NCBI GenBank assembly: GCA_964606485.1
Contig: CAZSGP010000001.1
Coordinates: 225,085 to 289,084 of the forward strand
Length of the DNA stretch: 64,000 nt
Origin: an uncultured Planctomycetia bacterium
Lineage (GTDB): Bacteria; Omnitrophota; Gorgyraeia; 2-02-FULL-51-18
Direction: 5' to 3'
The translations under genes and the position numbers were made by a program. The notes below the pieces were generated by a model. It searched no databases and was not told the origin of the DNA. It was given only the letters and a program-made list of their open reading frames with translations. Positions 1 through 18,937 of the stretch are shown here, piece after piece. How positions within the stretch are numbered: the stretch's first letter is position 1; each line of letters begins with the position of its first letter.

Positions 1-3000
1 TCGAAGTCCGGTTCGAACGGTCCGTGGATTCCAATTATGAACCCGATTTCCGGTTTGGCGAATATCCCGAACTCTGGTTCGCTGTCCTGGACAGTGCCCG
101 ATGATATCACCAACAACGCCTATGTGAAGGTAGACGCTGCATCCGGTCCCGCGGTGAGCACGAAATCTCCCGCACAATTTAAAATCATGGCGCGTTTTGT
201 CATCACGGCTCCCACCGGCGGCGCTGTTCTTCTGGCGGGTCAAGACCAAACGATTTCTTGGAATAAGTGGGGTTCTGCGGCAACCACGGTCAGAATTGAA
301 CTTGCGACCGATGGAAGTGGCAATCCTCCAACCTACAACAAAATTCTTGATTTGAGCGCGCCGGCCGGAACGAGCACAGGCTCTTATAACTGGGCTGTCG
401 ATAACCCTGTGTCAGCAGCCAATAACGTAACGCCCACTGCGCGTCTAAGGATATACGACACAACCGACATTGACAGCGCGGCAACTTCTTCTAGTAATTT
501 CATCATTCGCGCAAGCTTTACGATGAGCCCGCTGATCGGAAGCGTTCCGCTCAAAGTCGGTGACACTTACGACGTGGTTTGGGCTAAAGTCGGTAATATT
601 CCTCAAGTCCTATTGCAGTATTCTCCGTTTAACAACTTTGGTGTCGATGCCCGCAACATTGAAGGTTCTGCGGCGGGCCTTGTGGCGAATGTGGGAGATT
701 CGGGCAAAGGAGATGGGCCTAACACCGCTCGCTTTGTGTGGACGGTACCGGACATCGACCCGGCAGAAGCTGACCATGTTTACTTGCGCGTTTCGGATCC
801 GAACGACTCCGGCGCCAAGAGCGTTTCCAACGAATTTATGATCAAGCCGAAGTTTACCGTAACTTCTCCGAATGGAAATGCGGATCCGAATCTTGCCGAA
901 AAATGGAAAGTAGGTATTTCTTATCCAATTACCTGGACGAGCTCCTCTGCTTTAGTGAATACGCCCACTGTAAAAGTTTCGTACTCCATAACCGGCGGCG
1001 CCTCATGGGTTCCTATTGCTACCGTTAGCAATAACGGGACCCGCAATTGGACGGTTCCGGATGCAATTTCGGAAGACGCTAAAATCCGCGTGGAAGATGC
1101 CAATGACGCCACGGCCTTCGATGATTCCAATGAAAATTTCAAAATCATCTCCAATTTCACTTCGATGGCGCCCAATGGCGGGCAGGTTCTAACGGTGGGC
1201 GACCTCACGCCGATCACATGGGGTTATCAGGGAACGGTGTCGAATGTAGAATTGTCTTACTCCACAGCAGGCTCCGATTTTTCTGCGGCGACTATTTTTG
1301 TTCCGTTTACGCAGGCGAATAATATTTCAACAAATCCGAATAATGGATCTCTGCCGAGCCAATGGACTGTGCCGGATGCGATTGGCTACAACACTAGAAT
1401 CAGAGTGAAGAGCTTTAATGACGACGGATACATTATTTCCGCGAGCGATTTCAGAATTAAAGGTAAGATCGAATTTAACTACGGCCAAGCTCCGCTTTCG
1501 GCCCCCATTTTGAGCGAGCCGGTGCCGATCGGTCAGCCCTACACGATTAAATGGAAAACAACCGGCACTATTCCTAACGTGAAGATTTTATATGATGTGA
1601 ATGACGGCAACGGAGCCGACAATAATCCCGGCACCGGAGACGAATTCTTGGGTGTCATCACAAATTCTGTTGCGAACACCGGCTCCTATGTATGGCCGGC
1701 TGTACCCGACCAAGGAACGGCATTTGCCAAAATTCGTGTGATCGATGCGCGTGTCGCTGAGGCAGACGTAATGGGCGATTCGGCCAAATTCAATATCGTG
1801 GGTAATTTGAGTGTGGTGACTCCAGCCGGCGCTGAAGCGTGGAAAGTGAATACGGCTCAGCAAGTCACATGGCATTGGGGCGGCACGATTCAACGCATTA
1901 AAGTTTCTTACACGACGAATCCAGCGGTGCTGGCATCCGATTCCAACGCTTGGACAACGGTCGAGACTATTGATTACGGCGCCAATAGCGGAAATGGAAA
2001 TAACGGTGCCGATCTTAGAACCTACAACTGGGCAATTCCGGACAGCATTTCACCGACGGTGCGCGTGAAAGTTGAAAATGCGGATGATTCGTCGGTATAC
2101 AGTGTGTCTCAGACCTTCAAAATCGTTGGTTCATTTAGAATCACCGCTCCAAATGGAAATGCGGATGTGACGCTGACCGATCGCTGGGTGACGAACGATG
2201 TATGGAATATTACTTGGGAAACCAACGGTAATATTCCGGCCGTCAAACTTCAATATTCCAATGACAATTTTGTGAGCGATATTCACGTCATCGACAATGC
2301 CGCTCCAAACGTACCCAATGGTTATTCAGGCGCTTATCCCTATGTCAGCAGCTATGCATGGCAAATTCCTGACGTGGTTCTTAAAGATGTCGGAGGCGCA
2401 TACACCGGACCCAATTTGGTGAAGGTCAGAGTGATTGACGCCAATGACGCGGCGGTGACCGATGTCTCCGATGATCCCTTCAAGATTGATTACTACAAAG
2501 TGACGTGGTTGTTGCGCGACTTGTCAACCTTTAAAGTTTTAACGGAATTGGGTGTCAAAGAGGTGAAATCATCAGACGCTAATTTCGTTCAATGGGTCGA
2601 GGCTGGTGTGGCTCAAGAATCTGCTCCCGGCGTATTACCTCCTTATAACCGCATTCAACCAACTCCGGCGGGGAGCTGGCTAGCCACATGGACTAAGACC
2701 GGTTATGGCGATGTGTCTCAGCTTGTGCTCTTAAACAAGAATCAACCGACGCTAGATCCGAAATATGTTATTTTCATGGAAACGACGGCCGTGCACATTT
2801 ATTTGGCCGAATCCAAATACAGCTTTGATCCGGGTAACAGCACGGTGATCCCGGCAATTCCGACTAAACTCGATATTATTGGTTGGCTCTCTCGTGACGG
2901 CGCCATCATCTCGGGTGTGGTGAACGCCAAAGTCGAAATTTACGACGGCACGACGCTAGTTGGAGGCGCGGCTATTCCTCTAGCGAAAGTGTTGGATGCC

Positions 3001-4188
3001 GGCACCGGAGCGGATACAGGCCTTTGGAATGCGAGCCGAACCAACGTAACGATCGCACCAATGAGCTTGCAGGCTGGTAAAACCTATATCGGCAAATGCT
3101 ACATGCAGATTGCAAGCCAAGTCGACGAAGACGTGTGGTATCAAACGCCGTCTGCGTTTGAAATCACCGCGTCCGTGAAACTTGAAGAGGTGAGAGCGAC
3201 CGTTGAGAAAAATATCGATAAACCGCTGTCACAATTCGCCACTGAAATGCAAGCGACTTTGGATAATCAGACGACCACTCTAACATCCAAGTTAGATGCT
3301 CAAACGGTAACTATACAGAGCACTCTGGATGCTCAGACTCAAATTATCACGTCCGCCATCACAGACTTTAATAATAGCGTCGCTAGCGCTATCACGGATC
3401 TCAATACGGCGGCCGATCGAAGCTTGGACGCGGCGGAAAACTTGGAAGACACGGCCAACAAATTTTCATGGAAAGCCGTTGTGGCTCCAAACCCGGCTCT
3501 CACCGGTGACTCGGTGATGTTGCAGGCGCAGGGACCGCCGAATCTCAAGCCGATTGTCAGTGTTTATAACAACACGAACAAGCAGGTTATTGCCGCGGCC
3601 ATTATGGAAGAAGAGTCTTTGCGCCCGGGCAATTACAGCTACACCTTTAAAGCCATGTCCTCAAGCTTCACTCCTGGTCAAGCGTATACGTACATTGTGA
3701 CGGAAGACGTCACGGGTGGTTTGGTGGCCGGTTCCGGATTCGTTGAAAGTATTTCGCTGACTGCCGTTGCCGGCTTGGCTAGCGCCGCACCTGCCGCTGA
3801 AAAAGCAGCCAAAGAAGCTGTGGAAGCCATCAAAGAACTTGAAACCACTATGGCTCGCGGCGGTGATTTGAAGAAAGCCCTTGTGAATTTACAGCGCTCC
3901 GTTGATTCCCTGCCGGATCAAGTCAGCAAGGTGAGCGGAGACACCAAGGGCGTTCGCTCTGCGGTGAACGAAATTTCCACTCGCTTGCAACAGCTCGCCG
4001 GAAACCAAGGGCTCGACTTTACTCAACTTTTTGCAAAAGCATTGGACGAAAATGCTAAAATAGAAGACATTCGCACCCGTTCCGGTGCCATTGTGAATTC
4101 ACTGGAACTCTTGGGGGCGATCGTCGAGAAGAGACTGGGTGGCGGCGACGAGCCGATTGTAGCGACCTTCCTGGAAGCTGCATCTTAA
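1..4188 (+). CDS. Giant secreted/cell-surface protein, 5'-truncated at the window edge. It has >=9 tandem ~90-100 aa Kre9/KNH-like (PF10342-like) beta-domains and a C-terminal coiled-coil region.
   Basis: The ORF is open to position 1 (first Met at 37). A recurring module reads 'F.I...F.ITAP.GG..L..G....ITW.......V.I.YS..G..W..I......W.VPD.IS..A.IRV.D.ND....D.SNE.FKI', with W(T/A)(V/I)PD motifs seen about 9 times. The C-terminal third has heptad-like 'LDAQT' repeats and a Lys/Ala/Glu coiled coil. Confidence 0.6.
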   Translation, partial: SKSGSNGPWIPIMNPISGLANIPNSGSLSWTVPDDITNNAYVKVDAASGPAVSTKSPAQFKIMARFVITAPTGGAVLLAGQDQTISWNKWGSAATTVRIELATDGSGNPPTYNKILDLSAPAGTSTGSYNWAVDNPVSAANNVTPTARLRIYDTTDIDSAATSSSNFIIRASFTMSPLIGSVPLKVGDTYDVVWAKVGNIPQVLLQYSPFNNFGVDARNIEGSAAGLVANVGDSGKGDGPNTARFVWTVPDIDPAEADHVYLRVSDPNDSGAKSVSNEFMIKPKFTVTSPNGNADPNLAEKWKVGISYPITWTSSSALVNTPTVKVSYSITGGASWVPIATVSNNGTRNWTVPDAISEDAKIRVEDANDATAFDDSNENFKIISNFTSMAPNGGQVLTVGDLTPITWGYQGTVSNVELSYSTAGSDFSAATIFVPFTQANNISTNPNNGSLPSQWTVPDAIGYNTRIRVKSFNDDGYIISASDFRIKGKIEFNYGQAPLSAPILSEPVPIGQPYTIKWKTTGTIPNVKILYDVNDGNGADNNPGTGDEFLGVITNSVANTGSYVWPAVPDQGTAFAKIRVIDARVAEADVMGDSAKFNIVGNLSVVTPAGAEAWKVNTAQQVTWHWGGTIQRIKVSYTTNPAVLASDSNAWTTVETIDYGANSGNGNNGADLRTYNWAIPDSISPTVRVKVENADDSSVYSVSQTFKIVGSFRITAPNGNADVTLTDRWVTNDVWNITWETNGNIPAVKLQYSNDNFVSDIHVIDNAAPNVPNGYSGAYPYVSSYAWQIPDVVLKDVGGAYTGPNLVKVRVIDANDAAVTDVSDDPFKIDYYKVTWLLRDLSTFKVLTELGVKEVKSSDANFVQWVEAGVAQESAPGVLPPYNRIQPTPAGSWLATWTKTGYGDVSQLVLLNKNQPTLDPKYVIFMETTAVHIYLAESKYSFDPGNSTVIPAIPTKLDIIGWLSRDGAIISGVVNAKVEIYDGTTLVGGAAIPLAKVLDAGTGADTGLWNASRTNVTIAPMSLQAGKTYIGKCYMQIASQVDEDVWYQTPSAFEITASVKLEEVRATVEKNIDKPLSQFATEMQATLDNQTTTLTSKLDAQTVTIQSTLDAQTQIITSAITDFNNSVASAITDLNTAADRSLDAAENLEDTANKFSWKAVVAPNPALTGDSVMLQAQGPPNLKPIVSVYNNTNKQVIAAAIMEEESLRPGNYSYTFKAMSSSFTPGQAYTYIVTEDVTGGLVAGSGFVESISLTAVAGLASAAPAAEKAAKEAVEAIKELETTMARGGDLKKALVNLQRSVDSLPDQVSKVSGDTKGVRSAVNEISTRLQQLAGNQGLDFTQLFAKALDENAKIEDIRTRSGAIVNSLELLGAIVEKRLGGGDEPIVATFLEAAS

Positions 4189-4213: not shown

Positions 4214-5002
4214 ATGAACGCTCGAAAAATTCTTCTGCTTACTTTATTCACAGCGCTTGTAGCTTCGTGGGCCGCTCACGAAGCTTATTCGGCGAGTGTT
4301 AAAATGAGAGTCGTGGTCGTTAATCCTTCCGATAAAAAAGAGCAAACCAAGTCCGTTCGCACTGAACTGCCGAAGGAAGTGAAGCAGAAAGACATTTTAG
4401 ATGCCGGTGGATTGGACATAGAGTACGATACCGAAAAGGGCGCTTTTTATGCCTCCAAAAATGACATTCCGCTAGCTCCTCTCGAGACTAAAATTTTTGA
4501 AATTGTCATGAACGACGTTTGGATTTGGCCTAAGGAAAACCTCGATTTCTTCCGTGAACAAACCAAAAAAATTGTGGCCAAATTAAAAGACACGTCGTTT
4601 GGCGAGCAGGCTGAACTCATCGCTAAAACCATTTATGGGCGTCTGGATGAAATTGAAACCAATCAGAACGATCAAAATGTTTCGCGTCAGCAGCACGTGG
4701 CGTATTTCCGCGAAGCCAATAAGACCATTGAGTCGGTGAAGGCGGATATCGAGCGACTGCAGAAACTGCTGATCACAGCAGGCGGCACGCCGAATCTCGA
4801 TCTTGTCGAAAACGCTGACGTGAAACTCAAATCCCCCAATACCAAAACGACCTGGATCGTTATCTTTGCCGTGATCTTGTTCGTCGCGATCTTGAGCGGC
4901 ACGTTTTACTTTACGTGGCTCAGGCAGTCCAGTAACTCGGACGCAGTATTTAAAAAAGAAAAAGACGCTTCTTTCGCTGAATTCAAACCCAAAAAAGAAT
5001 AG
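4214..5002 (+). CDS. Hypothetical exported protein with an N-terminal signal peptide and a C-terminal transmembrane anchor.
   Basis: The N-terminus 'MNARKILLLTLFTALVASWAAHEA' looks like a signal peptide. A single hydrophobic segment 'TTWIVIFAVILFVAILSGTFYF' lies near the C-terminus, followed by a Lys-rich tail. There is an 8-bp gap to the downstream epsilon gene. Confidence 0.45.
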   Translation: MNARKILLLTLFTALVASWAAHEAYSASVKMRVVVVNPSDKKEQTKSVRTELPKEVKQKDILDAGGLDIEYDTEKGAFYASKNDIPLAPLETKIFEIVMNDVWIWPKENLDFFREQTKKIVAKLKDTSFGEQAELIAKTIYGRLDEIETNQNDQNVSRQQHVAYFREANKTIESVKADIERLQKLLITAGGTPNLDLVENADVKLKSPNTKTTWIVIFAVILFVAILSGTFYFTWLRQSSNSDAVFKKEKDASFAEFKPKKE

Positions 5003-5009
5003 CGTATAA

Positions 5010-5255
5010 ATGGCGCTGACCCCGATTGAGGTGAAAGTCTTAAGTCCTCAGCGGCTCATTTTTGAAGGGCAAGCAAAGAGCATCATTCTCCCGGGAGAAT
5101 CGGGTGTTTTTGAAATTGCCCCGCATCACAAGCGTTTACTTTCCAGATTATTAGGCGGTTTTGTCATTATTGACAATAAGCGCATGTCGATTAAGCGCGG
5201 TGTAGTCAAGGCAGGCTTAAACAAAGTGACAATTATCGTTGAAGAAGATGATTAA
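5010..5255 (+). CDS. atpC: F-type ATPase epsilon subunit, N-terminal beta-sandwich domain only (81 aa). The C-terminal helical hairpin is absent.
   Basis: 'LTPIEVKVLSPQRLIFEGQAKSIILPGESGVFEIAPHHKRLLSRLLGGFVII' matches the epsilon consensus (LxVVTPE...PG..G..GILP.HAPLLT.L.PG.V.I). The protein stops after ~80 aa, with no helical domain. Confidence 0.7.
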   Translation: MALTPIEVKVLSPQRLIFEGQAKSIILPGESGVFEIAPHHKRLLSRLLGGFVIIDNKRMSIKRGVVKAGLNKVTIIVEEDD

Positions 5256-6804
5256 AAAAAACGCTCCGGTTATATTTATTTTTTTGATGGGGATTGGCCT
5301 TTATGTCAATTCTCTCTGCGGCCCATTTATCTATGACGATCTAGAGCTCGTCCGGAACAACGGCAAACTCCAAAGTTTCCAGGCTCTTTCGCAATCCTTT
5401 AAGCAGGATATTAATTTATCGACGGGCCGGACCGGTTTTTTTTACCGGCCCTTTCTTCAGGTGACTTATGCCTTGGACAGTCATTTTTGGAAGGGAAGGG
5501 TTTATGGGTATCATGCCACGAGCATTGTGCTTCACGCGCTTGCGGCTTTGGCGCTCGCTTCTTTAATTTTCATTCTTTTTGGAGATAAACTCGTCGCGTT
5601 TTTAACAGCTCTTTTGTGGCTCGTGCACCCTGTGCATACCGAAGCTGTTTCTTATATTTCAGGACGCGCCGATCCTCTGGCAGCACTCCTACTTTTGTTG
5701 GCGCTTATTTTTTATGTGAGGGGAGACTATGCACACCGGCTGCGAAATCTTTCCCTGCTCATCATTTTTTATGCGCTTGCACTCCTATCTAAAGAACATA
5801 GCCTTATTTTTTTAGCCCTGATCGCTCTCGTTCATCTTGTTTTTAAGAAGCGAATTCAGTGGCCGGCGCTAATTGCGGTAGCGACACTTTCTCTTTTTTA
5901 CGGTTTTTTACGATTTTCTCAGTTACAGACCTTGCTTTCAAATCCTCTCAATCCCAGTACACTTGCGGAGCGTTTACCCGGTTTTTTTGTGGCAGTTGCT
6001 AAATATTTCAAACTTCTCGCGTGGCCTACGAATCTGCGAATGGAGTATGGCCTAAAAATATTCACATTTGCGGACCCTAGAGCCATAGTGGGGGTTGGTA
6101 TTTTAGCGGCCCTCTTTGCCTCTCTCTATTTTTTAAGAAAAAACCGTGTCTGGGTTTTTGGAATCGGCTGGTTTCTCATCACACTTTTACCGGTATCCAA
6201 TCTTTTTCCCATCAATGCATTTATGGCGGAGCACTGGCTCTATCTGCCCTCAATGGGGCTATGGCTCGCTTTTGCCGGCTTATTTTCAAGGGTGCTCCAG
6301 TCTCGCAAGCGTCTAGTTGCGGCACTCGCTTTGGCTGCACTCGCTTCGATGTATAGCCAGGCGACAATGGCTCAAAACAGTTATTGGAGTGACGCGGTAC
6401 TCTTTTACGAACGCACGTTGAAATTTGAACCCAATAATGCGCGCATGTGCAATAACCTCGCCGGAGTTTACAAAGATAGGGGAGACTTTGAGAGCGCAAA
6501 AACTTTCTACCAAAAAGCAATTACCATTGATCCGAATATTGCCGATGTTTATTTTAATTTGGGGACGATTTACGCTCAGGAGAATGATTTGGGAACAGCC
6601 ATGGATTGTTACCAGAAAACCGTTGAGCTGAATCCCAATTTTGCGCTGGCCTACAACAACATGGGCGCGCTTTACCAGGCGCACGGTCAAAATGAGCTCG
6701 CTTTGCTACAATACGAAAAGGCACTAAAACTCAATCCAAACTACAAGCGAGCCGCTGAAAATCTTTCAAATATTAAAATGAGATTGGGGAAGAGCAATGG
6801 ATAA
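5239..6804 (+). CDS. TMTC/PMT-like GT-C family membrane glycosyltransferase (DUF1736-type) with C-terminal TPR repeats.
   Basis: About 10 predicted TM helices. 'FIYDD' acidic motif in loop 1 and 'HPVHTEAV' motif. The C-terminus has about 4 TPR units ('NNLAGVYKDRGDFESAKTFYQKAITIDPN...'). The start overlaps the atpC stop by 17 nt and the stop overlaps the atpE start by 8 nt. Confidence 0.7.
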   Translation: MKKMIKKNAPVIFIFLMGIGLYVNSLCGPFIYDDLELVRNNGKLQSFQALSQSFKQDINLSTGRTGFFYRPFLQVTYALDSHFWKGRVYGYHATSIVLHALAALALASLIFILFGDKLVAFLTALLWLVHPVHTEAVSYISGRADPLAALLLLLALIFYVRGDYAHRLRNLSLLIIFYALALLSKEHSLIFLALIALVHLVFKKRIQWPALIAVATLSLFYGFLRFSQLQTLLSNPLNPSTLAERLPGFFVAVAKYFKLLAWPTNLRMEYGLKIFTFADPRAIVGVGILAALFASLYFLRKNRVWVFGIGWFLITLLPVSNLFPINAFMAEHWLYLPSMGLWLAFAGLFSRVLQSRKRLVAALALAALASMYSQATMAQNSYWSDAVLFYERTLKFEPNNARMCNNLAGVYKDRGDFESAKTFYQKAITIDPNIADVYFNLGTIYAQENDLGTAMDCYQKTVELNPNFALAYNNMGALYQAHGQNELALLQYEKALKLNPNYKRAAENLSNIKMRLGKSNG

Positions 6805-7015
6805 AAATGTCGCTATTATTTTGGTCTTCACGCTTTGCATTTTGGGGCCAACCGCCATTATTGCCGCGGCAGGGCATGCCAGTATTTCAGCTCTCGGCCG
6901 TAATCCCTCGGCCGCTCCCAAGATCTTTACCGCTATGACGATGATGCTCATCTTTGGCGGTATGATTTCCATTGTGGCTCTGCTTGTTCTTTTTCAGCTT
7001 TACGCTACCAAATAA
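6797..7015 (+). CDS. atpE: F-type ATPase subunit c-like proteolipid (72 aa helical hairpin). It apparently lacks the conserved ion-binding Glu/Asp in helix 2.
   Basis: Two hydrophobic helices joined by the polar loop 'ALGRNPSAAPK' (compare the conserved c-subunit 'ARQP(E/D)' loop). Helix 1 is Ala/Gly-rich ('IIAAAGHASISALG'). It sits directly upstream of the b/delta gene. No acidic residue occurs anywhere in helix 2 ('IFTAMTMMLIFGGMISIVALLVLFQLYA'). Confidence 0.6.
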   Translation: MDKNVAIILVFTLCILGPTAIIAAAGHASISALGRNPSAAPKIFTAMTMMLIFGGMISIVALLVLFQLYATK

Positions 7016-7074: not shown

Positions 7075-7151
7075 TGTCATTGCGAGGAGCTTTTGCGACG
7101 AAGCAATCTAGATTTTAGAGCGAGATTGCTTCGCTGACGCTCGCAATGACA
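7075..7151. repeat. Copy 1 of a ~77-bp palindromic intergenic repeat (REP/MITE-like double-stem hairpin).
   Basis: tgtcattgcgag...gaagcaatct..agattgcttc...ctcgcaatgaca. The outer 12-bp and inner ~10-bp inverted repeats are shared with copies at ~22234 and ~25578. Coordinates are +/-2 nt. Confidence 0.75.
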
Positions 7152-7165: not shown

Positions 7166-7894
7166 ATGCTATTTTTAGTTCTAGTGGTTATTCAGCTCGT
7201 CATCTTCGGTGTCCTGATTTTTCTCCTTAAAAACGTCCTCACCCGCAATGTCCGCACGGCGACCGCGCACCTGAATGAGTTGAACCAAGACTACACTCAA
7301 AAAATGGACGAAGCCAATAAGCGCATGCACGAAGCGGAAAAATTTTACGATGACGCGATTTTGCGATCCAAGACCGATGCCGAACGAGCAAAAATGGAAA
7401 TTTTAAAAGAGGCGCGGTCGCAAGATGAGCAGATTGTAGGGGATGCGCGAAAACAAAGCACCGAAATTTTGGAGCAGGCGCGCCGCGCGCGGGATCTCAT
7501 GATTGAAGAGATTGAACAGAAAATTGAAGTCCGCGCTGTTGAAAGGGCGAGCGAGTTTCTGGCTCAGATCCTTCCTTCTGAAATCAGTATGGATATGCAC
7601 ACTAAATGGACCGAGCAAATCCTTAAAAAAGGATTTTCGGATTTGTCGCGCATGAATTTTCCGGACGGGGAGCTCAAAGTAAAAATTATTTCGGCTTACG
7701 AATTGACAGCGGATCAAAAATCTCAAATCGAAGAAATTCTCCGCACCGCGCTCAAGCGTGAATTTTCTCTGGAAACAGCGTCCGACGTCAGTTTGGTTGC
7801 CGGTATCCAGGTAACAGTGGCCAGTATCGTGATTGACGGAACACTGAAATTTAAGATCCGGGAGATAGCCCGCCGTGCCCAACGAACTGAATAA
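7166..7894 (+). CDS. atpFH: Compact F-type ATPase b-delta fusion stator subunit. It has an N-terminal TM helix, a b-like coiled coil and a delta/OSCP C-terminal domain.
   Basis: N-terminal TM 'LFLVLVVIQLVIFGVLIFLL'. A charged coiled coil typical of subunit b. The C-terminus 'LVAGIQVTVASIVIDGTLKFKIREIARRA' matches the delta C-terminal consensus (LLGGV.V.IGD.VIDGSVRGRLERLA). At 242 aa it is too short to contain a delta N-terminal domain. Confidence 0.7.
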   Translation: MLFLVLVVIQLVIFGVLIFLLKNVLTRNVRTATAHLNELNQDYTQKMDEANKRMHEAEKFYDDAILRSKTDAERAKMEILKEARSQDEQIVGDARKQSTEILEQARRARDLMIEEIEQKIEVRAVERASEFLAQILPSEISMDMHTKWTEQILKKGFSDLSRMNFPDGELKVKIISAYELTADQKSQIEEILRTALKREFSLETASDVSLVAGIQVTVASIVIDGTLKFKIREIARRAQRTE

Positions 7895-8028
7895 TTGGCC
7901 GAAAAAGCCCATCTGCTGCGTTGCTCTCTGCGCTTCCTCAGTCGACGTACGTAAGCGTACGCCTTCTTCGGTCGCTTGGTCGCGCCTTGCATATAGGCTT
8001 TTTGGACCAATTATTGAAGACGGTGAAA

Positions 8029-9501
8029 ATGGCTCCTGATACGACTACGGCGCAGTTTGAAATGCGCGAAGTAGGGCATTTAAAATCCATTAAGCGCTTT
8101 ATTGCTGTGACCGACGACTTGAACTCCTGTATCAATGGCCAGCTCGTGGAGTTTGAAAAAGGAGCGCGCGGCATTGTCATGGGATTTACACACGACAAAA
8201 TTCAAATTTTAGTTCTAGGGCCCACCCAAGGAATCCGTTTGGGGGACGAAATTTATAATCGCGGCGAGTCCTTCAATCTCCCAGTGGGTGAAAAATTTAA
8301 AGGCCGCGTGGTGACCGCTCTCTGCGAGCCAGCGGACGGGCTCGGACCCATTCATGCAGATGACCGGTACCCGGTTTTTCAAGACGCACCCGGCATTATT
8401 GACCGCGAACAGCTCACCGAAACCATGGAAACCGGAACATTTGCGCTCGATGCCGGTATTCCTATTGCCAAAGGACAGCGCCAGCTTTTAATCGGCGACC
8501 GTGGAACGGGAAAAACAACAATCGGCATTGACGCCATTCTCAATCAAAAGGGAAAAGGTGTTATCTGTATTTATTGCGTGATTGGGAAACCGTATTCGAG
8601 CCTTGTCAAAACCTTAGGTCTCCTTCATGAACAGGGGGCGATGGAGCACACGATTGTCGTGAGTGCGGTCGCATCGACCTCTCCTGGTGAGCAGTACATC
8701 GCGCCGTACACTGCGGCGATGCTGGGCGAATATTTCATGAAATCCGGTCGTGATGTGCTTTGCATTTTTGACGATCTCACGAAGCACGCGTGGGTTTACC
8801 GACAAATTTCACTGCTCCTCGAGCGACCTCCGGGTCGCGAAGCGTATCCGGGTGACATTTTTTATATTCACTCTCAACTTTTAGAGCGCGCCGGGCGATT
8901 CACCAAAGATTTAAAGGGCGGTTCGATGACATTTTTACCGATTGTCGAAGTGCTGCAGGGGGACGTGACGGGTTACATCCCCACCAATATTATTTCCATC
9001 ACCGACGGGCAAACGTATTTTTCGACGAACCTTTATAACAAAGGCCACAAGCCCCCGATCGATTTCGGTTTGTCGGTGTCGCGTATTGGAAATAAGGGAC
9101 AGTGGTCGGCCATGAAAGACGTGTCGAAGAGTCTCCGCTTGGAATACCTTCAGTACCAGGAAATGCTTCAGATGACTCAGCTTCGCTCCGGAGGCCTTTC
9201 AAAAGACTCGGAGGCGCGTTTAAAGCGCGGGGAAGCGCTGACGCAGCTTTTAGTGCAGACCAAAAATAAACCGGTTTCTATTCCAGAACAAGTGTTTTTT
9301 TTAATTGCGCTCGGAAAAGGGGTTCTTGACCCGCTTCCTGCGGCACAGATCAAAAAATTTAAAGTGGAAATTTCCGACTTCGTCGATAAAAAAGACCCTG
9401 CAATTTTAAAAGAGCTCAACGAAACAAAAAAACTAACGGACGCAAACAAAGAAAAAATCGTGAACTGTTTAAAGCAGTATTTTGAAAGCGTGGGAGGCTA
9501 A
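8029..9501 (+). CDS. atpA: F-type ATPase alpha subunit.
   Basis: P-loop 'GDRGTGKTTIGIDAILNQKG' and overall F1-alpha architecture. The internal Met at 8029 was chosen because the upstream 36 codons look non-native. Confidence 0.9.
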   Translation: MAPDTTTAQFEMREVGHLKSIKRFIAVTDDLNSCINGQLVEFEKGARGIVMGFTHDKIQILVLGPTQGIRLGDEIYNRGESFNLPVGEKFKGRVVTALCEPADGLGPIHADDRYPVFQDAPGIIDREQLTETMETGTFALDAGIPIAKGQRQLLIGDRGTGKTTIGIDAILNQKGKGVICIYCVIGKPYSSLVKTLGLLHEQGAMEHTIVVSAVASTSPGEQYIAPYTAAMLGEYFMKSGRDVLCIFDDLTKHAWVYRQISLLLERPPGREAYPGDIFYIHSQLLERAGRFTKDLKGGSMTFLPIVEVLQGDVTGYIPTNIISITDGQTYFSTNLYNKGHKPPIDFGLSVSRIGNKGQWSAMKDVSKSLRLEYLQYQEMLQMTQLRSGGLSKDSEARLKRGEALTQLLVQTKNKPVSIPEQVFFLIALGKGVLDPLPAAQIKKFKVEISDFVDKKDPAILKELNETKKLTDANKEKIVNCLKQYFESVGG

Positions 9502-10358
9502 TGCTCCCAGCAACGTTCATCAAGCGGCAGATTGATTTCAATAAACAATTCCGCTCGCTCTTGGACGTGATGAAACTTGTGGCCGTATCCCAGTACCATA
9601 TTTTGGAAAAAAAGCTTCAGTATTTTGATTTGTTCGGTGAAGTGCTCACAGAGTTTTTTGATTCGATTGATGTGAGCCGTGTGAATCACCCTTTTTTAAA
9701 CGGGGGAGACAAGCCGGTAGGGGTTTTGGCGATCACGTCCGACGGGGGACTTTTAGGTGGCATGAACATGCAGGTCATTGCAAAGGCGGTGGATATTTTG
9801 TCGCGTCAGCCAGGAAAGCTGATCATCGTGGGGGAACGTGGACAGATTTATGCGCAGGGTTTTGGAATGTCCTTCACCTACTTTACCGGGATCATCGACA
9901 ACGAGCGCTACGCGCAGGCGATGACGGTGCGGGATTATGTGACGCAGGAAATTTTAAATGGAAATTTAGGGGGATTAAAAGTGGTGTTTCCGAGAGCGTT
10001 GTCGCTCGTGATGAATAAAATTGAAGTCGAGACGCTCGTACCCTTTACGCGTAAAGACGCCGAGGGTGCCGCGCCTAAAACTGGCGGAAGTCTAGCGCAA
10101 GTGATTTTAGAAACGCGCCCTGAAGACATTGCGGAATACTTGGTTTACTTGTACGTAGGGGAGCGGCTATACGAAGTGTTTGGCATGGCGCGACTCGCCG
10201 AACAAGCGGCACGTTTTGTGCACTTGGAAGAAAGCTGTCAAAAAATTCAGGATATGAACAATAAATTGCTCCTTCAGTATTTTAAACGACGTCATGAAAT
10301 TATCGATTCCAATATGCGCGAACTTTTTTCCGCAAAGAAAGCTTATGCCGATGGCTGA
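9501..10358 (+). CDS. atpG: F-type ATPase gamma subunit.
   Basis: 285 aa, gamma-like N- and C-terminal helices ('...LYVGERLYEVFGMARLAEQAARFVHLEES...'). It overlaps the alpha stop by 1 nt and the beta start by 8-14 nt. Confidence 0.8.
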   Translation: MLPATFIKRQIDFNKQFRSLLDVMKLVAVSQYHILEKKLQYFDLFGEVLTEFFDSIDVSRVNHPFLNGGDKPVGVLAITSDGGLLGGMNMQVIAKAVDILSRQPGKLIIVGERGQIYAQGFGMSFTYFTGIIDNERYAQAMTVRDYVTQEILNGNLGGLKVVFPRALSLVMNKIEVETLVPFTRKDAEGAAPKTGGSLAQVILETRPEDIAEYLVYLYVGERLYEVFGMARLAEQAARFVHLEESCQKIQDMNNKLLLQYFKRRHEIIDSNMRELFSAKKAYADG

Positions 10359-11757
10359 GGATAAGAAAATTTTAACGCCGGGAAAAGTAGTGGGTGTTCA
10401 AGGTCCCGTGGTGGACGTGCGGTTTACCCTTCAAAAGGACGTGCCCGATATTTACAACGTCATTCATGTTCAGTCCATGGACAACCGAAAAGTAACGCTT
10501 GAAGTCGTGGAGCATTTGCCTGGAAATTTAGCGCGCTGTATCGCCATCGAATCCACTCAAAATCTTCAGCGTTTTGCCGTGGGCCAACCGTCTGGAAAAC
10601 CCGTTGAAATTCCGGTCGGGGACTGTCTTTATACGCGCTGCGTGAATGTGCTCGGCCAGCCCATCGACAAAATGGGTCCGATTGAGTCTAATCTTTACAT
10701 GCCTATCCGCCGGCCGGAGTCGGGCACGCGAGTTCCGGACTTTAGTAAACAAAAGCGCCGTGGCGAAGAAGTGCTAGAAACGGGTATTAAAATTATCGAT
10801 CTGCTTTACCCGCTCGTCAAAGGAACAAAAACGGGGATCTTAGGGGGAGCGGGTCTTGGAAAAAGCGTTATCACGCTCGAAGTCATTCACCACGTCGTGC
10901 AAAAACATCAGGGTTCGTGCGTTTTTGCGGGTATCGGAGAGCGCTTGCGCGAAGGAAACGAACTTTTTTATGAACTGCGTGAACATGATCTTCACACCAA
11001 AACCATGCTCGTGTTTGGACAGATGAATGACCCGCCCGGCGCGCGTTTCGGTGTGGCTATGACCGGAATCACCATGGCTGAAGCCGTGCAAAAACAAAAC
11101 AAAGACGTGATCTTCTTTGCCGACAACGTGTTTCGTTTTATTCAAGCCGGAGCCGAAATTTCGACCCTGCTTGGCCGCGTGCCGTCCGAAACAGGGTATC
11201 AACCGACACTCATTTCCGAGTCGAGCGAATTTCATGAACGCATCCGCGAAGGGCAGGGCACCGGCGGATCGATCACCTCTATTGAAGCCGTTTACGTTCC
11301 CGCCGACGACATGACCGACCCTGCCGTCGTGGCCATCTTCTCATTTTTAAATTCTTTAATGGTGCTTTCCCGCGAACGCGTGCAGATGGGACTTTACCCA
11401 GCGATTGACCCGCTTCAATCGTCCTCGTCTAATTTAGATCCGGACGTGGTGGGCCAGCGCCATTACGACGCCTCCCAAGAAGTTATGCGCGTGTTCCAAA
11501 AATACGAAGAACTCCGCCGCATCGTTATGGTGATCGGAATCGACGAATTGTCCAAAGCCGACCGTACGATTTACGAACGCGCCCGGAAAATGCAATTTTT
11601 TCTGACTCAGCCTTTCGCCGTAGCAGAACGCTACACCGGCAAAAAGGGCGAGCACGTCCCCATCCGCAACACGCTAGATGGCTGTGAAAGAATATTATCT
11701 GGTAAAATGGACCGCAAACCTGAGCAAGAGTTTTACATGATCGGATCATTGGTTTGA
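10351..11757 (+). CDS. atpD: F-type ATPase beta subunit (catalytic).
   Basis: Walker A 'GGAGLGKSV', 'VFAGIGERLREGNELF' and DELS motif 'DELSKADR'. The start is at MAEDKK (10351) or MPMAEDKK (10345). Confidence 0.9.
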   Translation: MAEDKKILTPGKVVGVQGPVVDVRFTLQKDVPDIYNVIHVQSMDNRKVTLEVVEHLPGNLARCIAIESTQNLQRFAVGQPSGKPVEIPVGDCLYTRCVNVLGQPIDKMGPIESNLYMPIRRPESGTRVPDFSKQKRRGEEVLETGIKIIDLLYPLVKGTKTGILGGAGLGKSVITLEVIHHVVQKHQGSCVFAGIGERLREGNELFYELREHDLHTKTMLVFGQMNDPPGARFGVAMTGITMAEAVQKQNKDVIFFADNVFRFIQAGAEISTLLGRVPSETGYQPTLISESSEFHERIREGQGTGGSITSIEAVYVPADDMTDPAVVAIFSFLNSLMVLSRERVQMGLYPAIDPLQSSSSNLDPDVVGQRHYDASQEVMRVFQKYEELRRIVMVIGIDELSKADRTIYERARKMQFFLTQPFAVAERYTGKKGEHVPIRNTLDGCERILSGKMDRKPEQEFYMIGSLV

Positions 11758-11776: not shown

Positions 11777-12232
11777 ATGCTTCTAGGAGAACGCTTAGTC
11801 AGACTCGGTAAAATTACCGAAGATCAATTGAATGAAGCGCTGACAGAGCAAAAAAATACGAGTGAGTTTTTGGGGAATATTTTGCTCCGGCGTGCTTGGA
11901 TTCGTGAAGACGACTTAACCGAAGTTTTATCCGAGCAGTTCGAGATGCCTTTTATGAAACTCAAGAACGAGTATCTTGACTGGAATTTGATTTTGACATT
12001 TTCGTCAACACTTGTCGTAGAACACAAATGCGTCCCCTTTCGAAAAGACGAAAAAGGGTACACGGTTGCGATCACCAATCCTTTAGACGCGATGGCTATC
12101 AGTGAGGCAGAGAAGCTGGCGCAAAGGGGAGACCGGGTTTCGATTGTTTTGGTGACGCCCAGTCAGATGCATACGGTGATTCGTGAGTATCAAAAACGTT
12201 TATCCGATAAAATAAAAGGACTATTGGGGTAA
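11777..12232 (+). CDS. Stand-alone MshEN/T2SSE_N domain protein (GspE N-terminal domain, a likely c-di-GMP-binding module).
   Basis: 'LGERLVRLGKITEDQLNEALTEQ' fits the MshEN motif RLG..L(V/I)..G.I....L..AL..Q. A good RBS lies 20 nt after the atpD stop. Confidence 0.65.
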   Translation: MLLGERLVRLGKITEDQLNEALTEQKNTSEFLGNILLRRAWIREDDLTEVLSEQFEMPFMKLKNEYLDWNLILTFSSTLVVEHKCVPFRKDEKGYTVAITNPLDAMAISEAEKLAQRGDRVSIVLVTPSQMHTVIREYQKRLSDKIKGLLG

Positions 12233-12238
12233 AAGCGC

Positions 12239-14404: not shown

Positions 14405-15654
14405 TTTATTCGTACCGGGCTAAAAAAGGGCCCAAAGAGCTCGTAGAAGGAACGATAGAAGCGCTGACTGTCGAGGATGCGATTGAGCGGCTCAGCGAAA
14501 AAGGGCTTTTGCCAATCGACGTTCAAGAAGCTAAAGTTCAAGCGGTCGAAGCGCCGAGTCCCCGCGCATCGACGAAGCCTTTACCGCGCAGTCAGCCGGG
14601 CCGCATTACACTTTTTGGAGGGATACGGTCGTCCGAGATCACTGTTCTTTCCCGGCAATTGGCGAGCCTGCTCAAAGCGGGCGTGCCTATTTTGCAAGGT
14701 CTTTGGATTTTGTCCGAACAAACTCAAAATCCGAAACTTAAAAAAGTTTTGACGCACATTCAAGAAGAGGTTAATAACGGTAAATCTCTCTCAGCGATTT
14801 TTTCGCTCTACCCAAAATATTTTCCTCCTATTTACATTGCCATGATTCGCACCGGAGAAGATAGCGGCACGCTTGACTCGGCCCTTTCTCGAATTGCCGA
14901 ATACCGCCGCAAACAGGAAGAAATGCGCTCGCGTGTTCTTTCGGCGATGGCGTACCCGATTCTCATGGCCATCACCGGAGCGGGAACCGTGATATTTATG
15001 CTCACGTTCGTGATTCCAAAGCTAACCAAACTATTTGCAAATTTAGGCCAGAGTCTGCCGGCTCCCACGCGCATTCTGATGACGATGAGTGAATTTTTAA
15101 AACAGCCGGCATTTTGGGGTGTGATCGGCATTCTTGTTGTGGCATTTAATTTATGGGTAAGACTTGCTCCGCAAATGGCACGCGCGGCGTGGAGCGCATT
15201 TAGTTTGAAATTGCCCATCATTAAAGGATTTGTGATGAAATCCGAGATGGCGCGTTTTTCAAGAACCATGGAGCTTCTTTTAAAATCGGGCGTCACGGTT
15301 TTAAGAGCCATTGAAATTACGACGCCGGTTTTAAAGAATGTAATTTTGCGCGCTGAATTTTCAAAGGCCTACCAATCCATCACCGGGGGAGGGTCGCTCG
15401 GAAAATCTTTAAAGGAATCCAAAATAGTGCCGATGTTTGTTTCAAACCTGATCTCGATTGGCGAAGAATCCGGAAAATTAGACGACACAATGAGCGAAAT
15501 CGCGGACTTATATGAACGCGAAACCGACGAGGCGATCCGCGTGATGACCTCGCTGATGGAACCGCTGATGATTTTAGTGATGGGCGGCATTGTGGGTTTT
15601 ATTGTGATTGCGATGATGTTGCCGATGTTTGAATTGAATATGGCAGTTAAATGA
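14401..15654 (+). CDS. gspF: T2SS/T4P platform protein (GspF/PilC family).
   Basis: Duplicated GspF domain architecture with three TM segments. The 4-nt start/stop overlap with gspE is typical. Confidence 0.9.
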   Translation: MIYSYRAKKGPKELVEGTIEALTVEDAIERLSEKGLLPIDVQEAKVQAVEAPSPRASTKPLPRSQPGRITLFGGIRSSEITVLSRQLASLLKAGVPILQGLWILSEQTQNPKLKKVLTHIQEEVNNGKSLSAIFSLYPKYFPPIYIAMIRTGEDSGTLDSALSRIAEYRRKQEEMRSRVLSAMAYPILMAITGAGTVIFMLTFVIPKLTKLFANLGQSLPAPTRILMTMSEFLKQPAFWGVIGILVVAFNLWVRLAPQMARAAWSAFSLKLPIIKGFVMKSEMARFSRTMELLLKSGVTVLRAIEITTPVLKNVILRAEFSKAYQSITGGGSLGKSLKESKIVPMFVSNLISIGEESGKLDDTMSEIADLYERETDEAIRVMTSLMEPLMILVMGGIVGFIVIAMMLPMFELNMAVK

Positions 15655-16535: not shown

Positions 16536-16948
16536 TGATGAAGAACAATAAAAGTGGTTTTACCCTGATCGAATTGATGCTCGTGGTTATTATTATCGGC
16601 GCGCTCGTGGCGATGGTGATGCCGCGTTTAGCCGGTCGTTCCGAGCAAGCCAAAACAGCGGCCGCTCAAGCGGATATCAGTGCCAATATTGCAACCGCTC
16701 TCAAGTTGTACGAGCTCGATAACGGGCACTATCCCGGAACGGATGAGGGCGGACTAAGCGCGCTGCAAACCAAGCCCGGCAACGCTAATAATTGGAAGGG
16801 TCCTTATATTGAAAAGAAGCCTCTGGATCCATGGGGCCGTGAATATCAATACAAGTGTCCGGGCCAACACCGCACTTATGATTACGATCTCTATTCTCTG
16901 GGTCCTGACGGCCAGGAAAGCACGGATGATCCCAAAAACTGGCAATAA
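16532..16948 (+). CDS. gspG: Major pseudopilin (GspG / type IV pilin-like).
   Basis: Class III signal 'KSGFTLIELMLVVIIIGAL' with G|F cleavage and Glu+5. C-terminal GspG-like 'GPYIEKKPLDPWGREYQY'. Confidence 0.85.
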   Translation: MMMKNNKSGFTLIELMLVVIIIGALVAMVMPRLAGRSEQAKTAAAQADISANIATALKLYELDNGHYPGTDEGGLSALQTKPGNANNWKGPYIEKKPLDPWGREYQYKCPGQHRTYDYDLYSLGPDGQESTDDPKNWQ

Positions 16949-17916: not shown

Positions 17917-17919
17917 GGC

Positions 17920-18933: not shown

Positions 18934-18937
18934 TCGC

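Follow-up and report, generated by a model that had tools for sequence, protein, structure and literature searches.

Introduction

The uncultured nanobacteria of the phylum Omnitrophota are regarded as likely predators or parasites. An F-type c-ring is characterized by a carboxylate that binds the ion and by its pairing with subunit a. Partly lost ion sites are known in c-rings built from V-type proteolipids, archaeal duplicated c subunits, and Acetobacterium woodii c1. F1-related ATPases also work outside bioenergetics, as in the FliI/SctN-FliH/SctL-FliJ/SctO system, where such an ATPase with a b/delta-like stalk serves an envelope machine.

An Omnitrophota cluster was named a "non-respiratory/symbiotic" F-type ATPase by Seymour et al. 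2023 (PMC10066038). Type-4 pilus genes were found alongside this non-respiratory F-ATPase in 57 of 66 contigs, and the Omnitrophota alpha subunit was compared with the mycoplasma F1-like family (PMC10066038). Within that family, the type 3 F1-like X0 ATPase is required for the MIB-MIP surface system and needs the Walker A lysine of beta (PMC12994834). The mycoplasma seven-gene cluster contains a 12-TM protein (TM, transmembrane) and a small cytoplasmic protein, is without a c, b, or delta homologue, and encodes, beside the epsilon-like gene, a large protein that bears a signal peptide and TM helices at its C-terminus (PMC12994834). Carboxylate-free hairpins are tolerated as structural ring members (PMC9171764).

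Herein, a 64-kb stretch of DNA (the window), assigned to Omnitrophota through its nearest relatives, was analyzed. The original prediction for this DNA had described a c-subunit-like protein without the essential ion-binding carboxylate.

Organization of the ATPase cluster

In the window, the alpha and beta genes lie within 10 kb of type-4-pilus/T2SS-like genes, which is how Seymour et al. delimited the Omnitrophota F-ATPase (PMC10066038). For comparison, 80 genome loci, nearly all from Omnitrophota, were retrieved via peptide patterns from the c loop and helix 2 and were ranked on similarity to the window protein. Their common order is giant surface protein, epsilon, c, b/delta fusion, alpha, gamma, beta, and T2SS/T4P-like genes. 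The features of the window are as follows.

37..4188, + strand: giant surface protein "BIG", C-terminal 1383 aa; the start lies before the window
4214..5002, + strand: p262, membrane-anchor module of the giant protein (AlphaFold2 model, pLDDT 83)
5010..5255, + strand: epsilon subunit, N-terminal beta-sandwich domain alone, 81 aa (PF02823, 49 bits)
5239..6804, + strand: multi-TM protein with C-terminal TPR repeats, 521 aa (TPR family matches only)
6797..7015, + strand: c-subunit homologue, 72-aa hairpin with Gly55 in the ion-binding carboxylate column (profile, fold, operon context)
7077..7150, no strand: palindromic repeat element of ~75 nt in the c-b spacer (stable hairpin, z = -3.4)
7166..7894, + strand: peripheral-stalk b/delta fusion, 242 aa (PF00213 OSCP at residues 167-236, 49 bits)
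7921..9501, + strand: F1 alpha subunit (TIGR00962 atpA, 528 bits, cut-off 484)
9501..10358, + strand: F1 gamma subunit, divergent (PF00231 over the whole length, 124 bits, cut-off 39.9; TIGR01146 under cut-off)
10351..11757, + strand: F1 beta subunit (TIGR01039 atpD, 551 bits, cut-off 463)
11777..20943, + strand: T2SS/T4P-like genes (domain matches), on the same strand as the ATPase genes

BIG gave a single Kre9/KNH Ig-like domain match. Nearly every locus has a homologue directly 5' of the ATPase genes; in locus L001 it reaches 2683 aa at the locus end and is still incomplete. The p262 protein, which is a separate ORF in the window and is fused to BIG in many relatives, consists of a signal peptide, a beta-sandwich, a 3-helix bundle, a single C-terminal TM helix, and a short cytoplasmic tail. 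No match to p262 was found in Pfam or among PDB sequences. The product of the gene directly 5' of epsilon always terminates in a TM helix and tail that are strongly conserved, whether it is a separate p262 or the C-terminus of the giant protein. The TM motif TWxxIFxIxxFxGxLxxxxF[FY]FTW is conserved at this place in 63 loci, and the conserved cytoplasmic tail reads ..AKKSAFPE... The gap from this anchor gene to epsilon is usually 0-40 nt and is larger in some loci.

Epsilon is without its C-terminal helical domain; each of the 60 loci with an identified epsilon encodes a protein of 74-98 aa. The 521-aa multi-TM/TPR gene overlaps epsilon by 17 nt and c by 8 nt, and the N-terminal 360 aa of its product have no Pfam match. 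It is a lineage-specific insertion, not a conserved component: neither the closest relative (L084) nor the other loci have it between epsilon and c.

The c gene had been placed immediately upstream of b. A b-type gene does lie downstream; however, it is a fusion of b with the C-terminal part of delta and stands 150 nt away, with the palindromic repeat in between. Three copies of this repeat occur within the window, with a mean column identity of 83%. The fusion protein begins with a b-like N-terminal TM helix and coiled coil, followed by the C-terminal part of delta/OSCP, and is 236-270 aa long in all loci. Its ATP-synt_B match is weak; the NCBIfam model of the alt_F1F0 subunit B (TIGR03321) aligned over nearly the full length with an E-value of 1e-11, under the cut-off. 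Of the delta profile, 172 positions long, only positions 100-170 are covered, within the fusion with b, and the cluster encodes neither a separate full-length delta (OSCP) nor a full-length epsilon.

The catalytic alpha3beta3 head and the gamma shaft of F1Fo are both encoded. Alpha carries the Walker A motif GDRGTGKT and the Arg-finger motif SVSRIG; SVSR[IV]G was found in 64 of 65 loci. Beta carries GGAGLGKS, GERLREG, and FFADNVFR. Across the loci, GxxxxGK[ST] and GER.REG are each present in 56 of 56 beta subunits and the Walker B Asp motif in at least 53 of 56. The mechanical beta ORF opens at 10294, and 10351 is the start that matches the gene call in L001.

The T2SS/T4P-like genes are ordered as an MshEN-domain protein, GspE/PilB (MshEN and PilZ), GspF/PilC, Peptidase_MA_2, the GspG pseudopilin, GspJ, GspK, a PilM-PilN fusion, and a weak PilO. 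GspE/PilB starts 482 nt 3' of beta, the same order is found in ~60 Omnitrophota loci, and the GspE-GspF-p294 synteny is conserved across loci. A promoter and terminator scan around c gave counts no higher than shuffled sequence.

The c-subunit homologue

The c ORF starts with ATG, with a purine-rich GGGGAAGAG a few bases 5' of the start, and the encoded protein is MDKNVAIILVFTLCILGPTAIIAAAGHASISALGRNPSAAPKIFTAMTMMLIFGGMISIVALLVLFQLYATK. D2 is its sole acidic residue, and helix 2 (K42-K72) contains no Asp or Glu, as the original prediction had stated. The match to PF00137 (ATP-synt_C) covers residues 6-66 with an E-value of 5.5e-5 and 23.8 bits, 0.2 bits short of the gathering score of 24.0; a precomputed PF00137 match is present for most close relatives. 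When the c-family profile was compared with PDB sequences, the best match was 9itj_H, an F-type c subunit, and V-type c subunits came next.

The position of the missing carboxylate was located by alignment. The PDB alignments set the family segment "ifgAais" on "AFTEALAI" and "IFAEALAL". The family was also aligned via hhalign with 17 canonical c subunits of the "GRNPEA...FAEAIAIY" type, giving a probability of 98.7% and an E-value of 1.5e-16. F53-G54-G55 was paired with canonical F57-A58-E59, in which the Glu is the same throughout the canonical set; G55 therefore stands in the carboxylate column. The Glu or Asp typical of the middle of helix 2 in ATP-synt_C is Gly55 in this protein. Both alignments thus agree with the earlier assignment of Gly to the conserved position, and neither places an acidic residue there.

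The helical hairpin that had been expected was also obtained. The AlphaFold2 model, built with 29 relatives, is a two-helix hairpin (H3-35 and H37-70) with a mean pLDDT of 87. The 50 matches listed by Foldseek against PDB are c subunits, F-type except one, with query-normalized TM scores of 0.7-0.8 for the best-fitting F-type c subunits; the E-values are weak (at least 0.03) for this very short protein. In the family, the polar loop G34-R35-N36-P37 is invariant. In a HMMER search over 1.8 billion representatives, the family grades continuously into canonical GRNPE...FAEA c subunits. Relatives are encoded in more than 226 protein clusters and more than 300 stretches of species-representative genomes, a conservation that far exceeds chance; chance or pseudogene origin of the ORF was ruled out by it. 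The sequence profile, the fold, and the operon context agree that the ORF is a genuine F-type c-subunit homologue that has lost the ion-binding glutamate.

Variation of the carboxylate column among relatives

The carboxylate column was compared across 81 related loci. It holds E in 33, Q in 28, A in 9, T in 5, S in 4, G in 1, and V in 1, so that a small residue occupies it in 20 of 81; these frequencies describe a biased sample, because the loci were retrieved by pattern and ranked by similarity. The loss proposed for the window protein is seen repeatedly among orthologues, as a small residue or an E-to-Q change. Column 55 is the second most variable among the 25 helix-2 positions of the family, and the I30-K42 loop, F53, L63, and Q67 are invariant or nearly so. 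In canonical c subunits, the carboxylate column is invariant.

A neighbor-joining tree of the beta subunits, of the simple kind without support values, was used to order these states. Basal lineages carry E in the c column, the clade including the window has small residues only, and a second clade has mostly Q with E interspersed. On this tree, the ancestral state of the column in the a-less cluster is read as Glu; this point, like the earlier report of the cluster in Omnitrophota, goes beyond the original prediction. The residue could retain some role in the a-less loci that keep it.

Within the carboxylate-less clade, c sequences share a mean pairwise identity of 73%, as do those of beta, and alpha sequences share 66%; of the codons that differ, 62% are synonymous. 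By these measures, the c gene is still under purifying selection. Some MAGs carry two copies of the cluster (L008/L009, with S and V in the column, and L040/L061, with Q and Q), and the carboxylate is absent from both copies in each.

Search for subunit a

The loss of the carboxylate had been linked to the absence of subunit a, and the search results strengthen this link. No subunit a (PF00119) was found with c in the 64-kb window or in 83 related loci with up to 10 kb per side. The hydrophobic motif R-[LIVM]-x-[GAS]-N attributable to subunit a was not found in the window or in these 83 loci, and the loci contain no unassigned multi-TM ORF of 150-400 aa. In the multi-TM scan of the window, which covered all but three small ORFs with 2-3 TM helices, the ORFs were assigned to GspF, CDF, DUF2231, a P-type ATPase, and an acyltransferase, and the others were read as RND-type pumps or the TPR protein. 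The phylum-wide Omnitrophota cluster encodes every part of an F-type ATPase except the ion-channel subunit a.

Several candidates for subunit a were rejected. Four six-frame matches to a or V-type a motifs in the window and the 83 loci were spurious, falling in unrelated ORFs of 195-1069 aa, one of them inside a GspF-type gene. The 521-aa multi-TM/TPR gene occupies the usual place of atpB and was rejected as a substitute because its membrane domain belongs to no Pfam family and it is absent from L084 and, between epsilon and c, from the other loci. A divergent subunit a in the form of p262 was discarded as well, as p262 has a signal peptide, a periplasmic beta-sandwich, a helical bundle, and one TM helix.

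Proposed mechanism and alternative explanations

The cluster is proposed to encode an F-type motor that is driven by ATP, is not coupled to ions, and has an "ion-blind" c-ring and an output to the surface apparatus; we put the probability of this reading at about 60%. From the sequences we infer its three elements, namely ATP-driven rotation, absence of ion coupling, and mechanical output to a surface apparatus. The complex is probably not coupled to ions, and for the delivery of mechanical output to the surface system the chances are about even.

In such a motor, the F1 head would hydrolyze ATP and turn gamma-epsilon, which is the most likely behavior since all F1 catalytic residues are kept. 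The epsilon N-domain of canonical enzymes binds gamma and the c-ring. Here the c-ring would be held to gamma-epsilon via its invariant cytoplasmic loop and would act as an ion-blind membrane rotor or bearing, carrying neither proton nor sodium, so that the machine would neither synthesize ATP nor pump ions. The genetic link to the giant-protein anchor and the T2SS/T4P-like genes suggests that the motion would be handed on to this envelope apparatus. The machine probably spends ATP on mechanical work at the cell surface and not on ATP synthesis. The original prediction had reached the same reading, a "non-translocating rotor or anchor ring", and sequence alone does not separate rotor from anchor.

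The stator and the load speak against a rotating motor. Without subunit a, nothing evident holds the single TM helix of b/delta against the ring, and unloaded rotation would be futile. The N-terminal domain of delta, which normally grips alpha, is missing, so that the usual means of stator attachment is lacking.

In V-ATPases, type I membrane proteins (Voa1 and Ac45/ATP6AP1) place their C-terminal TM helices inside the lumen of the c-ring. The topology of p262 matches this type I topology, which is taken as a lead only. By this analogy, the conserved C-terminal TM helix of the giant protein (p262) might dock in or against the carboxylate-free c-ring, and the a-less motor might spin or crank the giant extracellular protein, perhaps with the pseudopilus machine, across the inner membrane. 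This is a speculative arrangement, and we consider it unlikely. If true, predatory or epibiotic bacteria of ultra-small size would possess a rotary mechanical actuator of a new class, an ATP synthase minus the ion path with the rotor, stator, and ring kept.

The same genes could also form a static anchor, in which a carboxylate-free c oligomer only tethers the F1-like ATPase and the work is done without sustained rotation of the ring, via conformational pushes on the anchor tail of the giant protein or via an unfoldase/export-type role like that of FliI/SctN. Neither subunit a nor an obvious stator partner for torque is present, the ..AKKSAFPE.. tail could touch F1/epsilon directly, and the mycoplasma type 3 F1-like X0 ATPase likewise pairs with non-Fo membrane proteins. 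However, the complete rotor set is conserved (gamma, the epsilon N-domain, and the invariant c loop), and the peripheral stalk (b/delta) is retained. In F-ATPase mechanics, a peripheral stalk is needed only against rotor-stator torque. With these points on the two sides, a static anchor is a minority prospect, to be kept in mind and doubted. Ion coupling might instead persist if other parts of the genome encode a subunit a, and possibly also a c with Glu, that join these subunits in a mixed ring like the hetero-oligomeric c-rings. The window is 64 kb of a 546-kb contig, "respiratory" F-type or V-type ATPases occur in many Omnitrophota (Seymour et al., PMC10066038), and some MAGs have two cluster copies. 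Such coupling is nevertheless improbable: both copies in the two-copy MAGs are carboxylate-free, the a gene is absent within 10 kb in 80 loci despite an otherwise rigid gene order, and the free E/Q/A/G/S/T/V variation is the opposite of an ion-coupling constraint.

The loss of the essential residue and of subunit a, together with the scores of gamma, epsilon, and c under curated NCBIfam/Pfam cut-offs, would also be expected of a decaying remnant of an ATP synthase operon whose c drifts after loss of function. Against such decay, c is conserved like alpha and beta across hundreds of species, the differences are mostly synonymous, and the loop is invariant; every locus retains intact reading frames and catalytic motifs, and synteny is rigid, which makes decay very improbable. 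Finally, the Pfam score just under its threshold and the weak Foldseek E-values of a 72-aa hairpin could point to an unrelated small membrane hairpin that only resembles a c subunit. The hhalign match to canonical c, the HMMER continuum into canonical c subunits, the Glu kept at exactly column 55 by relatives in the same cluster, and the location of the gene between epsilon and b/delta reduce this explanation to a negligible chance. The reading as an ATP-driven motor with an ion-blind ring is preferred over these explanations.

Significance of the finding

The cluster was already known as a non-respiratory F-ATPase. No earlier description of its missing subunit a or of the carboxylate loss in c was found in the available parts of Seymour et al., West-Roberts et al., a 2026 complete-genome preprint, and the wider literature. 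Hundreds of species keep the c-ring protein, both stalks, and an F1 head with intact catalytic motifs; subunit a has been dropped, and the carboxylate column varies freely across E, Q, A, G, S, T, and V. This is a natural experiment in which the structural or mechanical role of a c-ring is separated from ion carrying, and it suggests that a rotary ATPase has been turned to mechanical work at the Omnitrophota envelope. Calls of "F-type ATPase present" in Omnitrophota, and KO counts based on alpha and beta only, should not be taken as chemiosmotic capacity.

Comparison with known systems

The likeness to canonical F1Fo (atpIBEFHAGDC) is extensive. Alpha and beta pass the atpA and atpD equivalog cut-offs, gamma, the epsilon N-domain, a b-like stalk, and a c hairpin with the R-N/Q-P loop are present, and the catalytic residues are intact. 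The window cluster differs from F1Fo in that subunit a is absent, the c carboxylate is replaced, the C-terminal domain of epsilon is absent, and the C-terminal part of delta is fused to b. Its order is also different, being epsilon-c-b/delta-alpha-gamma-beta, set between the giant surface protein and the T2SS/T4P-like genes.

The N-ATPase (atpDCQRBEFAG) is a second non-canonical F-type operon, similar in its b of ~246 aa and in having no separate delta. However, N-ATPases keep subunit a, an ion-binding c-ring, and AtpQ/AtpR, which the window cluster does not; neither subunit a nor extra small membrane genes like AtpQ/AtpR were found in the cluster loci. Membership in this group was rejected by the scores against the alternative models (alpha 491 vs 750, beta 499 vs 752, b 45 vs 225, gamma 35 vs 282, and epsilon 14.5 vs 100). 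Rings that are partly carboxylate-free keep at least one carboxylate per subunit or ring together with subunit a, whereas the only c gene of the window cluster has none. The FliI/SctN complex is a homohexamer without a c-ring, and the window alpha and beta match FliI/SctN models far under the cut-offs.

Mycoplasma type 2 (gliding) and type 3 (F1-like X0, MIB-MIP) ATPases resemble the window cluster as non-respiratory, F1-derived ATPases tied to a surface system, with subunit a absent (PMC3369863, PMC11864180, PMC12994834). A further shared trait is the large protein with signal peptide and C-terminal TM anchor whose gene neighbors that of epsilon or its counterpart. Membership in the type 2/3 families was rejected, as the curated cut-offs were not reached: the scores were 397, 415, 293, and 372 bits against cut-offs of 600, 850, 520, and 570, all below the canonical atpA/atpD scores. 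The window cluster differs from the mycoplasma cluster in having c and b/delta in all loci and a multi-TM protein only as a lineage-specific insertion. The role would be comparable to that of the mycoplasma type 2/3 F1-like ATPases, and for structural biology the cluster offers an intermediate between the full F1Fo and the mycoplasma F1-like X0 motors.

Homology of the 72-aa ORF with c subunits

The ORF at 6797-7015 (+) opens with an ATG preceded by purine-rich GGGGAAGAG, and its 72-aa product is MDKNVAIILVFTLCILGPTAIIAAAGHASISALGRNPSAAPKIFTAMTMMLIFGGMISIVALLVLFQLYATK, with D2 as the sole acidic residue. Pfam ATP-synt_C matched residues 6-66 (E 5.5e-5, 23.8 bits, 0.2 bits below the gathering score). 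A database search brought up at least 226 protein clusters of relatives; most of them carry a precomputed PF00137 match, and the motif ALGRNPSAAPKIFTAM is nearly invariant. When a profile of 29 relatives was searched against PDB sequences, the top match was the F-type c subunit 9itj_H, followed by V-type proteolipids; in all printed alignments '..lifgAais..' of the family lay opposite '..AFTEALAI..' or '..LIFAEALAL..'. Among 1.8 billion representative proteins searched by HMMER, the family grades continuously into ordinary c subunits of the type 'GRNPEA...AFAEAIAIYALV'. Two distant relatives of 138-140 aa (P0123 and P0131) carry tandem double hairpins with RNPY loops and a Glu in each half, and are duplicated c subunits.

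The family was aligned by hhalign with 17 canonical 'GRNPEA' type c subunits (probability 98.7%, E 1.5e-16). F53-G54-G55 of the ORF was paired with F57-A58-E59, and E59 is invariant among the 17 sequences. The AlphaFold2 model is a two-helix hairpin (H3-35 and H37-70, pLDDT 87). Each of the 50 listed structural neighbours is a c subunit (F-type in all but one case), and the best-fitting have a query-normalised TM of 0.7-0.8. The profile alignments, hhalign, the hairpin model and its structural neighbours agree with the original prediction of c-subunit homology, and the placement of G55 on E59 bears out the predicted loss of the carboxylate. The ORF is thus confirmed as a c-subunit homologue in which Gly replaces the ion-binding carboxylate.

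Variation at the carboxylate position

With contigs of the window organism itself set aside, the residues at column 55 in 81 related loci are E 33, Q 28, A 9, T 5, S 4, G 1, V 1. In the 120 closest protein clusters the count was A 70, T 22, S 12, V 7, G 3, M 3, F 1, L 1, E 1. E and Q codons differ by one base. In the beta-subunit tree (neighbour-joining, without support values), E lies on deep branches, the clade including the window carries small residues only, and a second large clade is chiefly Q with E scattered within it.

Column 55 ranks second in variability among 25 helix-2 positions. Little or no variation is seen in the cytoplasmic loop (I30-K42) or at F53, L63 and Q67. Within the carboxylate-less clade, mean identity is 73% for c, 73% for beta and 66% for alpha, and 62% of the codons that differ are synonymous. 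Judged from these sequences, a variable column in an otherwise conserved protein indicates that constraint is relaxed on column 55 alone, with c overall strongly maintained.

Gene order

From 37 to 20943 every gene lies on the + strand, neighbours being separated by short gaps or overlapping, in the following order.

Genes of the cluster in the window, in order
Giant surface protein, C-terminal 1383 aa
4214-5002 (+), p262, 262 aa, signal peptide and one C-terminal TM helix
epsilon, 81 aa, N-domain only
5239-6804 (+), multi-TM + TPR protein, 521 aa, overlapping both epsilon and c
6797-7015 (+), c
b/delta-C-terminal fusion, 242 aa
alpha, gamma, beta
T2SS/T4P-like genes: MshEN protein, GspE/PilB (MshEN + PilZ domains), GspF, Peptidase_MA_2 protein
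Further T2SS/T4P-like genes: GspG, GspJ, GspK, PilM-PilN fusion, weak PilO

Alpha and beta score above the NCBIfam cut-offs for canonical atpA (528 vs 484) and atpD (551 vs 463). Both are much weaker on the mycoplasma gliding/type 3 and N-ATPase models, all below cut-off. The mechanically called beta ORF starts at 10294 and overlaps gamma by 65 nt (10294-10358); the start called in an identical Logan contig corresponds to 10351 (468 aa).

In the segment 11777-14404, the secretion/pilus ATPase has MshEN at its N-terminus and PilZ at its C-terminus, and the gene before it encodes an MshEN protein that stands alone. Both domain types bind c-di-GMP, a hint of c-di-GMP control over the whole apparatus. 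The c-b spacer holds a palindromic repeat of about 75 nt (7077-7150; core TCATTGCGAGGAGC..GCGACGAAGCAATC..GATTGCTTCGC..GCTCGCAATGA) that forms a long hairpin (z = -3.4); the other two of three copies in the window lie near 22277 (- strand) and 25597. One possibility is a REP/MITE-like element; another is a signal for mRNA processing or stability between the two genes.

A one-genome-per-species scan gave at least 300 stretches encoding relatives, and the best 80 loci were taken. These are nearly all from Omnitrophota MAGs or SAGs, with some auto-labelled 'Planctomycetia' bins that hold the same cluster. The genes keep to a rigid order: giant protein, (p262), epsilon, c, b/delta, alpha, gamma, beta, (MshEN), GspE, GspF, peptidase. 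In L046 (6703-9736) and L044, two alpha-like ORFs occur in succession, and in L046 alpha precedes epsilon; this is a rearranged, possibly duplicated cluster of a deep-branching, Glu-bearing lineage. Two MAGs carry the whole cluster twice on separate contigs, every copy with a carboxylate-less c: S and V at column 55 in one (L008 and L009, CAYJSE...) and Q in both copies of the other (L040 and L061, JAQURC...). These would be paralogous systems, or else strains mixed in the bin.

Membrane anchor of the giant protein

The gene directly 5' of epsilon encodes, in 63 loci, a C-terminal single TM helix, TWxxIFxIxxFxGxLxxxxF[FY]FTW, and a short tail, ..AKKSAFPE... The distance to epsilon is usually 0-40 nt and larger in some loci. 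The window and its near relatives encode this anchor module as a stand-alone protein (about 260-290 aa). Many other lineages have it as the C-terminal end of the giant protein, of which >3000 aa lie within the flank; loci named with the p262 module include L013, L015-L017, L022-L024, L026, L029, L035, L036 and L040-L042, among others. Separate and fused modules sharing the helix and tail imply that the giant protein's membrane anchor has undergone gene fission or fusion. The p262 model from AF2 (pLDDT 83) comprises a signal peptide, beta-sandwich and three-helix bundle, plus a long TM helix running into the cytoplasm; structure and sequence searches with p262 gave no informative neighbour. The strong conservation of the helix suggests that it may make a specific contact inside the membrane, with the c-ring or the b helix as candidate partners.

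Absence of subunit a

A motif scan of the 64-kb window detected no a-type Arg motif. Families assigned to the multi-TM ORFs were GspF, CDF transporter, DUF2231, P-type ATPase and acyltransferase; others were taken for RND-type pumps or are the TPR protein. No subunit a was thus found among the multi-TM ORFs of the window, three small ORFs with 2-3 predicted TM helices excepted. In 83 loci with up to 10 kb on each side, neither an a-type motif attributable to an a subunit nor an unassigned multi-TM ORF of 150-400 aa was found. A gap before epsilon in one locus is filled by two non-membrane inserts.

The TM + TPR gene (5239-6804) was ruled out as a substitute for a. It is absent from the closest relative, L084 (c 82% identical), and is therefore an insertion in the window lineage, not a replacement. 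Its membrane domain has no Pfam match. BLAST matches to this gene are located after beta in two distant loci (L066 and L083), and it may be a recurrent accessory association.

Other features of the window

26556-28631, 691-aa protein with a full autotransporter beta-domain (PF03797, 232 bits)
32701-35858, lone terminase-large-subunit-like gene (phrog_2, E 9e-22), with a tyrosine integrase (phrog_1, E 3.5e-50) about 250 nt downstream
36300-62169, dense apparent metal-efflux region after the integrase
38347-41499 and 53329-56727, two large 11-12-TM ORFs, putative RND-type pumps judged by appearance
41909-42598, CDF transporter
60058-62169, heavy-metal P-type ATPase

The metal-efflux region also encodes His-rich small secreted proteins and DUF2231 membrane proteins. 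The terminase-integrase segment may be a prophage remnant or a mobile-island border. The predicted autotransporter points to a diderm envelope with type V secretion.

Proposed mechanism and alternatives

The catalytic motifs are intact: GxxxxGK[ST] and GER.REG of beta in 56/56 each, the beta Walker B Asp motif in at least 53/56, and the alpha Arg-finger motif SVSR[IV]G in 64/65. In the best-supported reading, the complex would therefore hydrolyse ATP. Epsilon is 74-98 aa throughout, which is the beta-sandwich alone, and b/delta is 236-270 aa throughout. The rotor contact of F-ATPases is formed by the epsilon N-domain and the c loop, and the peripheral stalk serves to resist torque. The retention of these three elements argues that the ring would still be coupled to turning gamma-epsilon. 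With all rotor and stator parts retained, gamma-epsilon and the attached c-ring would rotate against alpha3beta3-b/delta. Ion transport would not occur, given that the cluster lacks the half-channel subunit and can dispense with the carboxylate. From synteny and the mycoplasma analogy, the output is probably mechanical, toward the giant-protein anchor and/or the pseudopilus machine.

Two observations sit awkwardly with this reading: b/delta lacks the delta N-domain by which the stalk would grip alpha, and Glu persists at column 55 in 33 of the 81 related loci. A static anchor is the strongest of the alternatives but unlikely, at about one chance in five. That a subunit a encoded in trans acts on a mixed ring is improbable, with no candidate for a in the flanks of the 83 loci. 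Decay of the system is very unlikely beside the strong maintenance of c outside one column, and non-homology of the ORF, which would set aside the agreeing profile and structural matches, is less credible still. The finding is real, and the original interpretation of the c ORF as part of a non-translocating rotor or anchor ring stands.

Comparison with known systems

A 'non-respiratory' F-type ATP synthase homologue beside type-4a pilus clusters was described in Omnitrophota by Seymour et al. 2023 (PMC10066038), in 56/111 Velamenicoccia species and co-located in 57/66 contigs. The cluster is thus already known as a non-respiratory F-type ATPase. Subunit c, the c-ring and subunit a are not mentioned in the main text or accessible supplements of that paper, and the wider literature search found no description of a missing a or a carboxylate-free c in this cluster. 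The a-less architecture with a retained c-ring, carboxylate-free or E/Q-variable, appears to be new.

The mycoplasma type 3 'F1-like X0' ATPase is required for the MIB-MIP surface system (PMC12994834). In the mycoplasma type 3 and type 2 gliding clusters, a large signal-peptide protein ending in TM helices is likewise listed beside an epsilon-like gene (PMC12994834). These mycoplasma clusters lack b, delta and c (PMC12994834), whereas the Omnitrophota cluster has c and b/delta. By this comparison the Omnitrophota machine is intermediate in form, an F1Fo complete except for subunit a and degenerate at its ion site.
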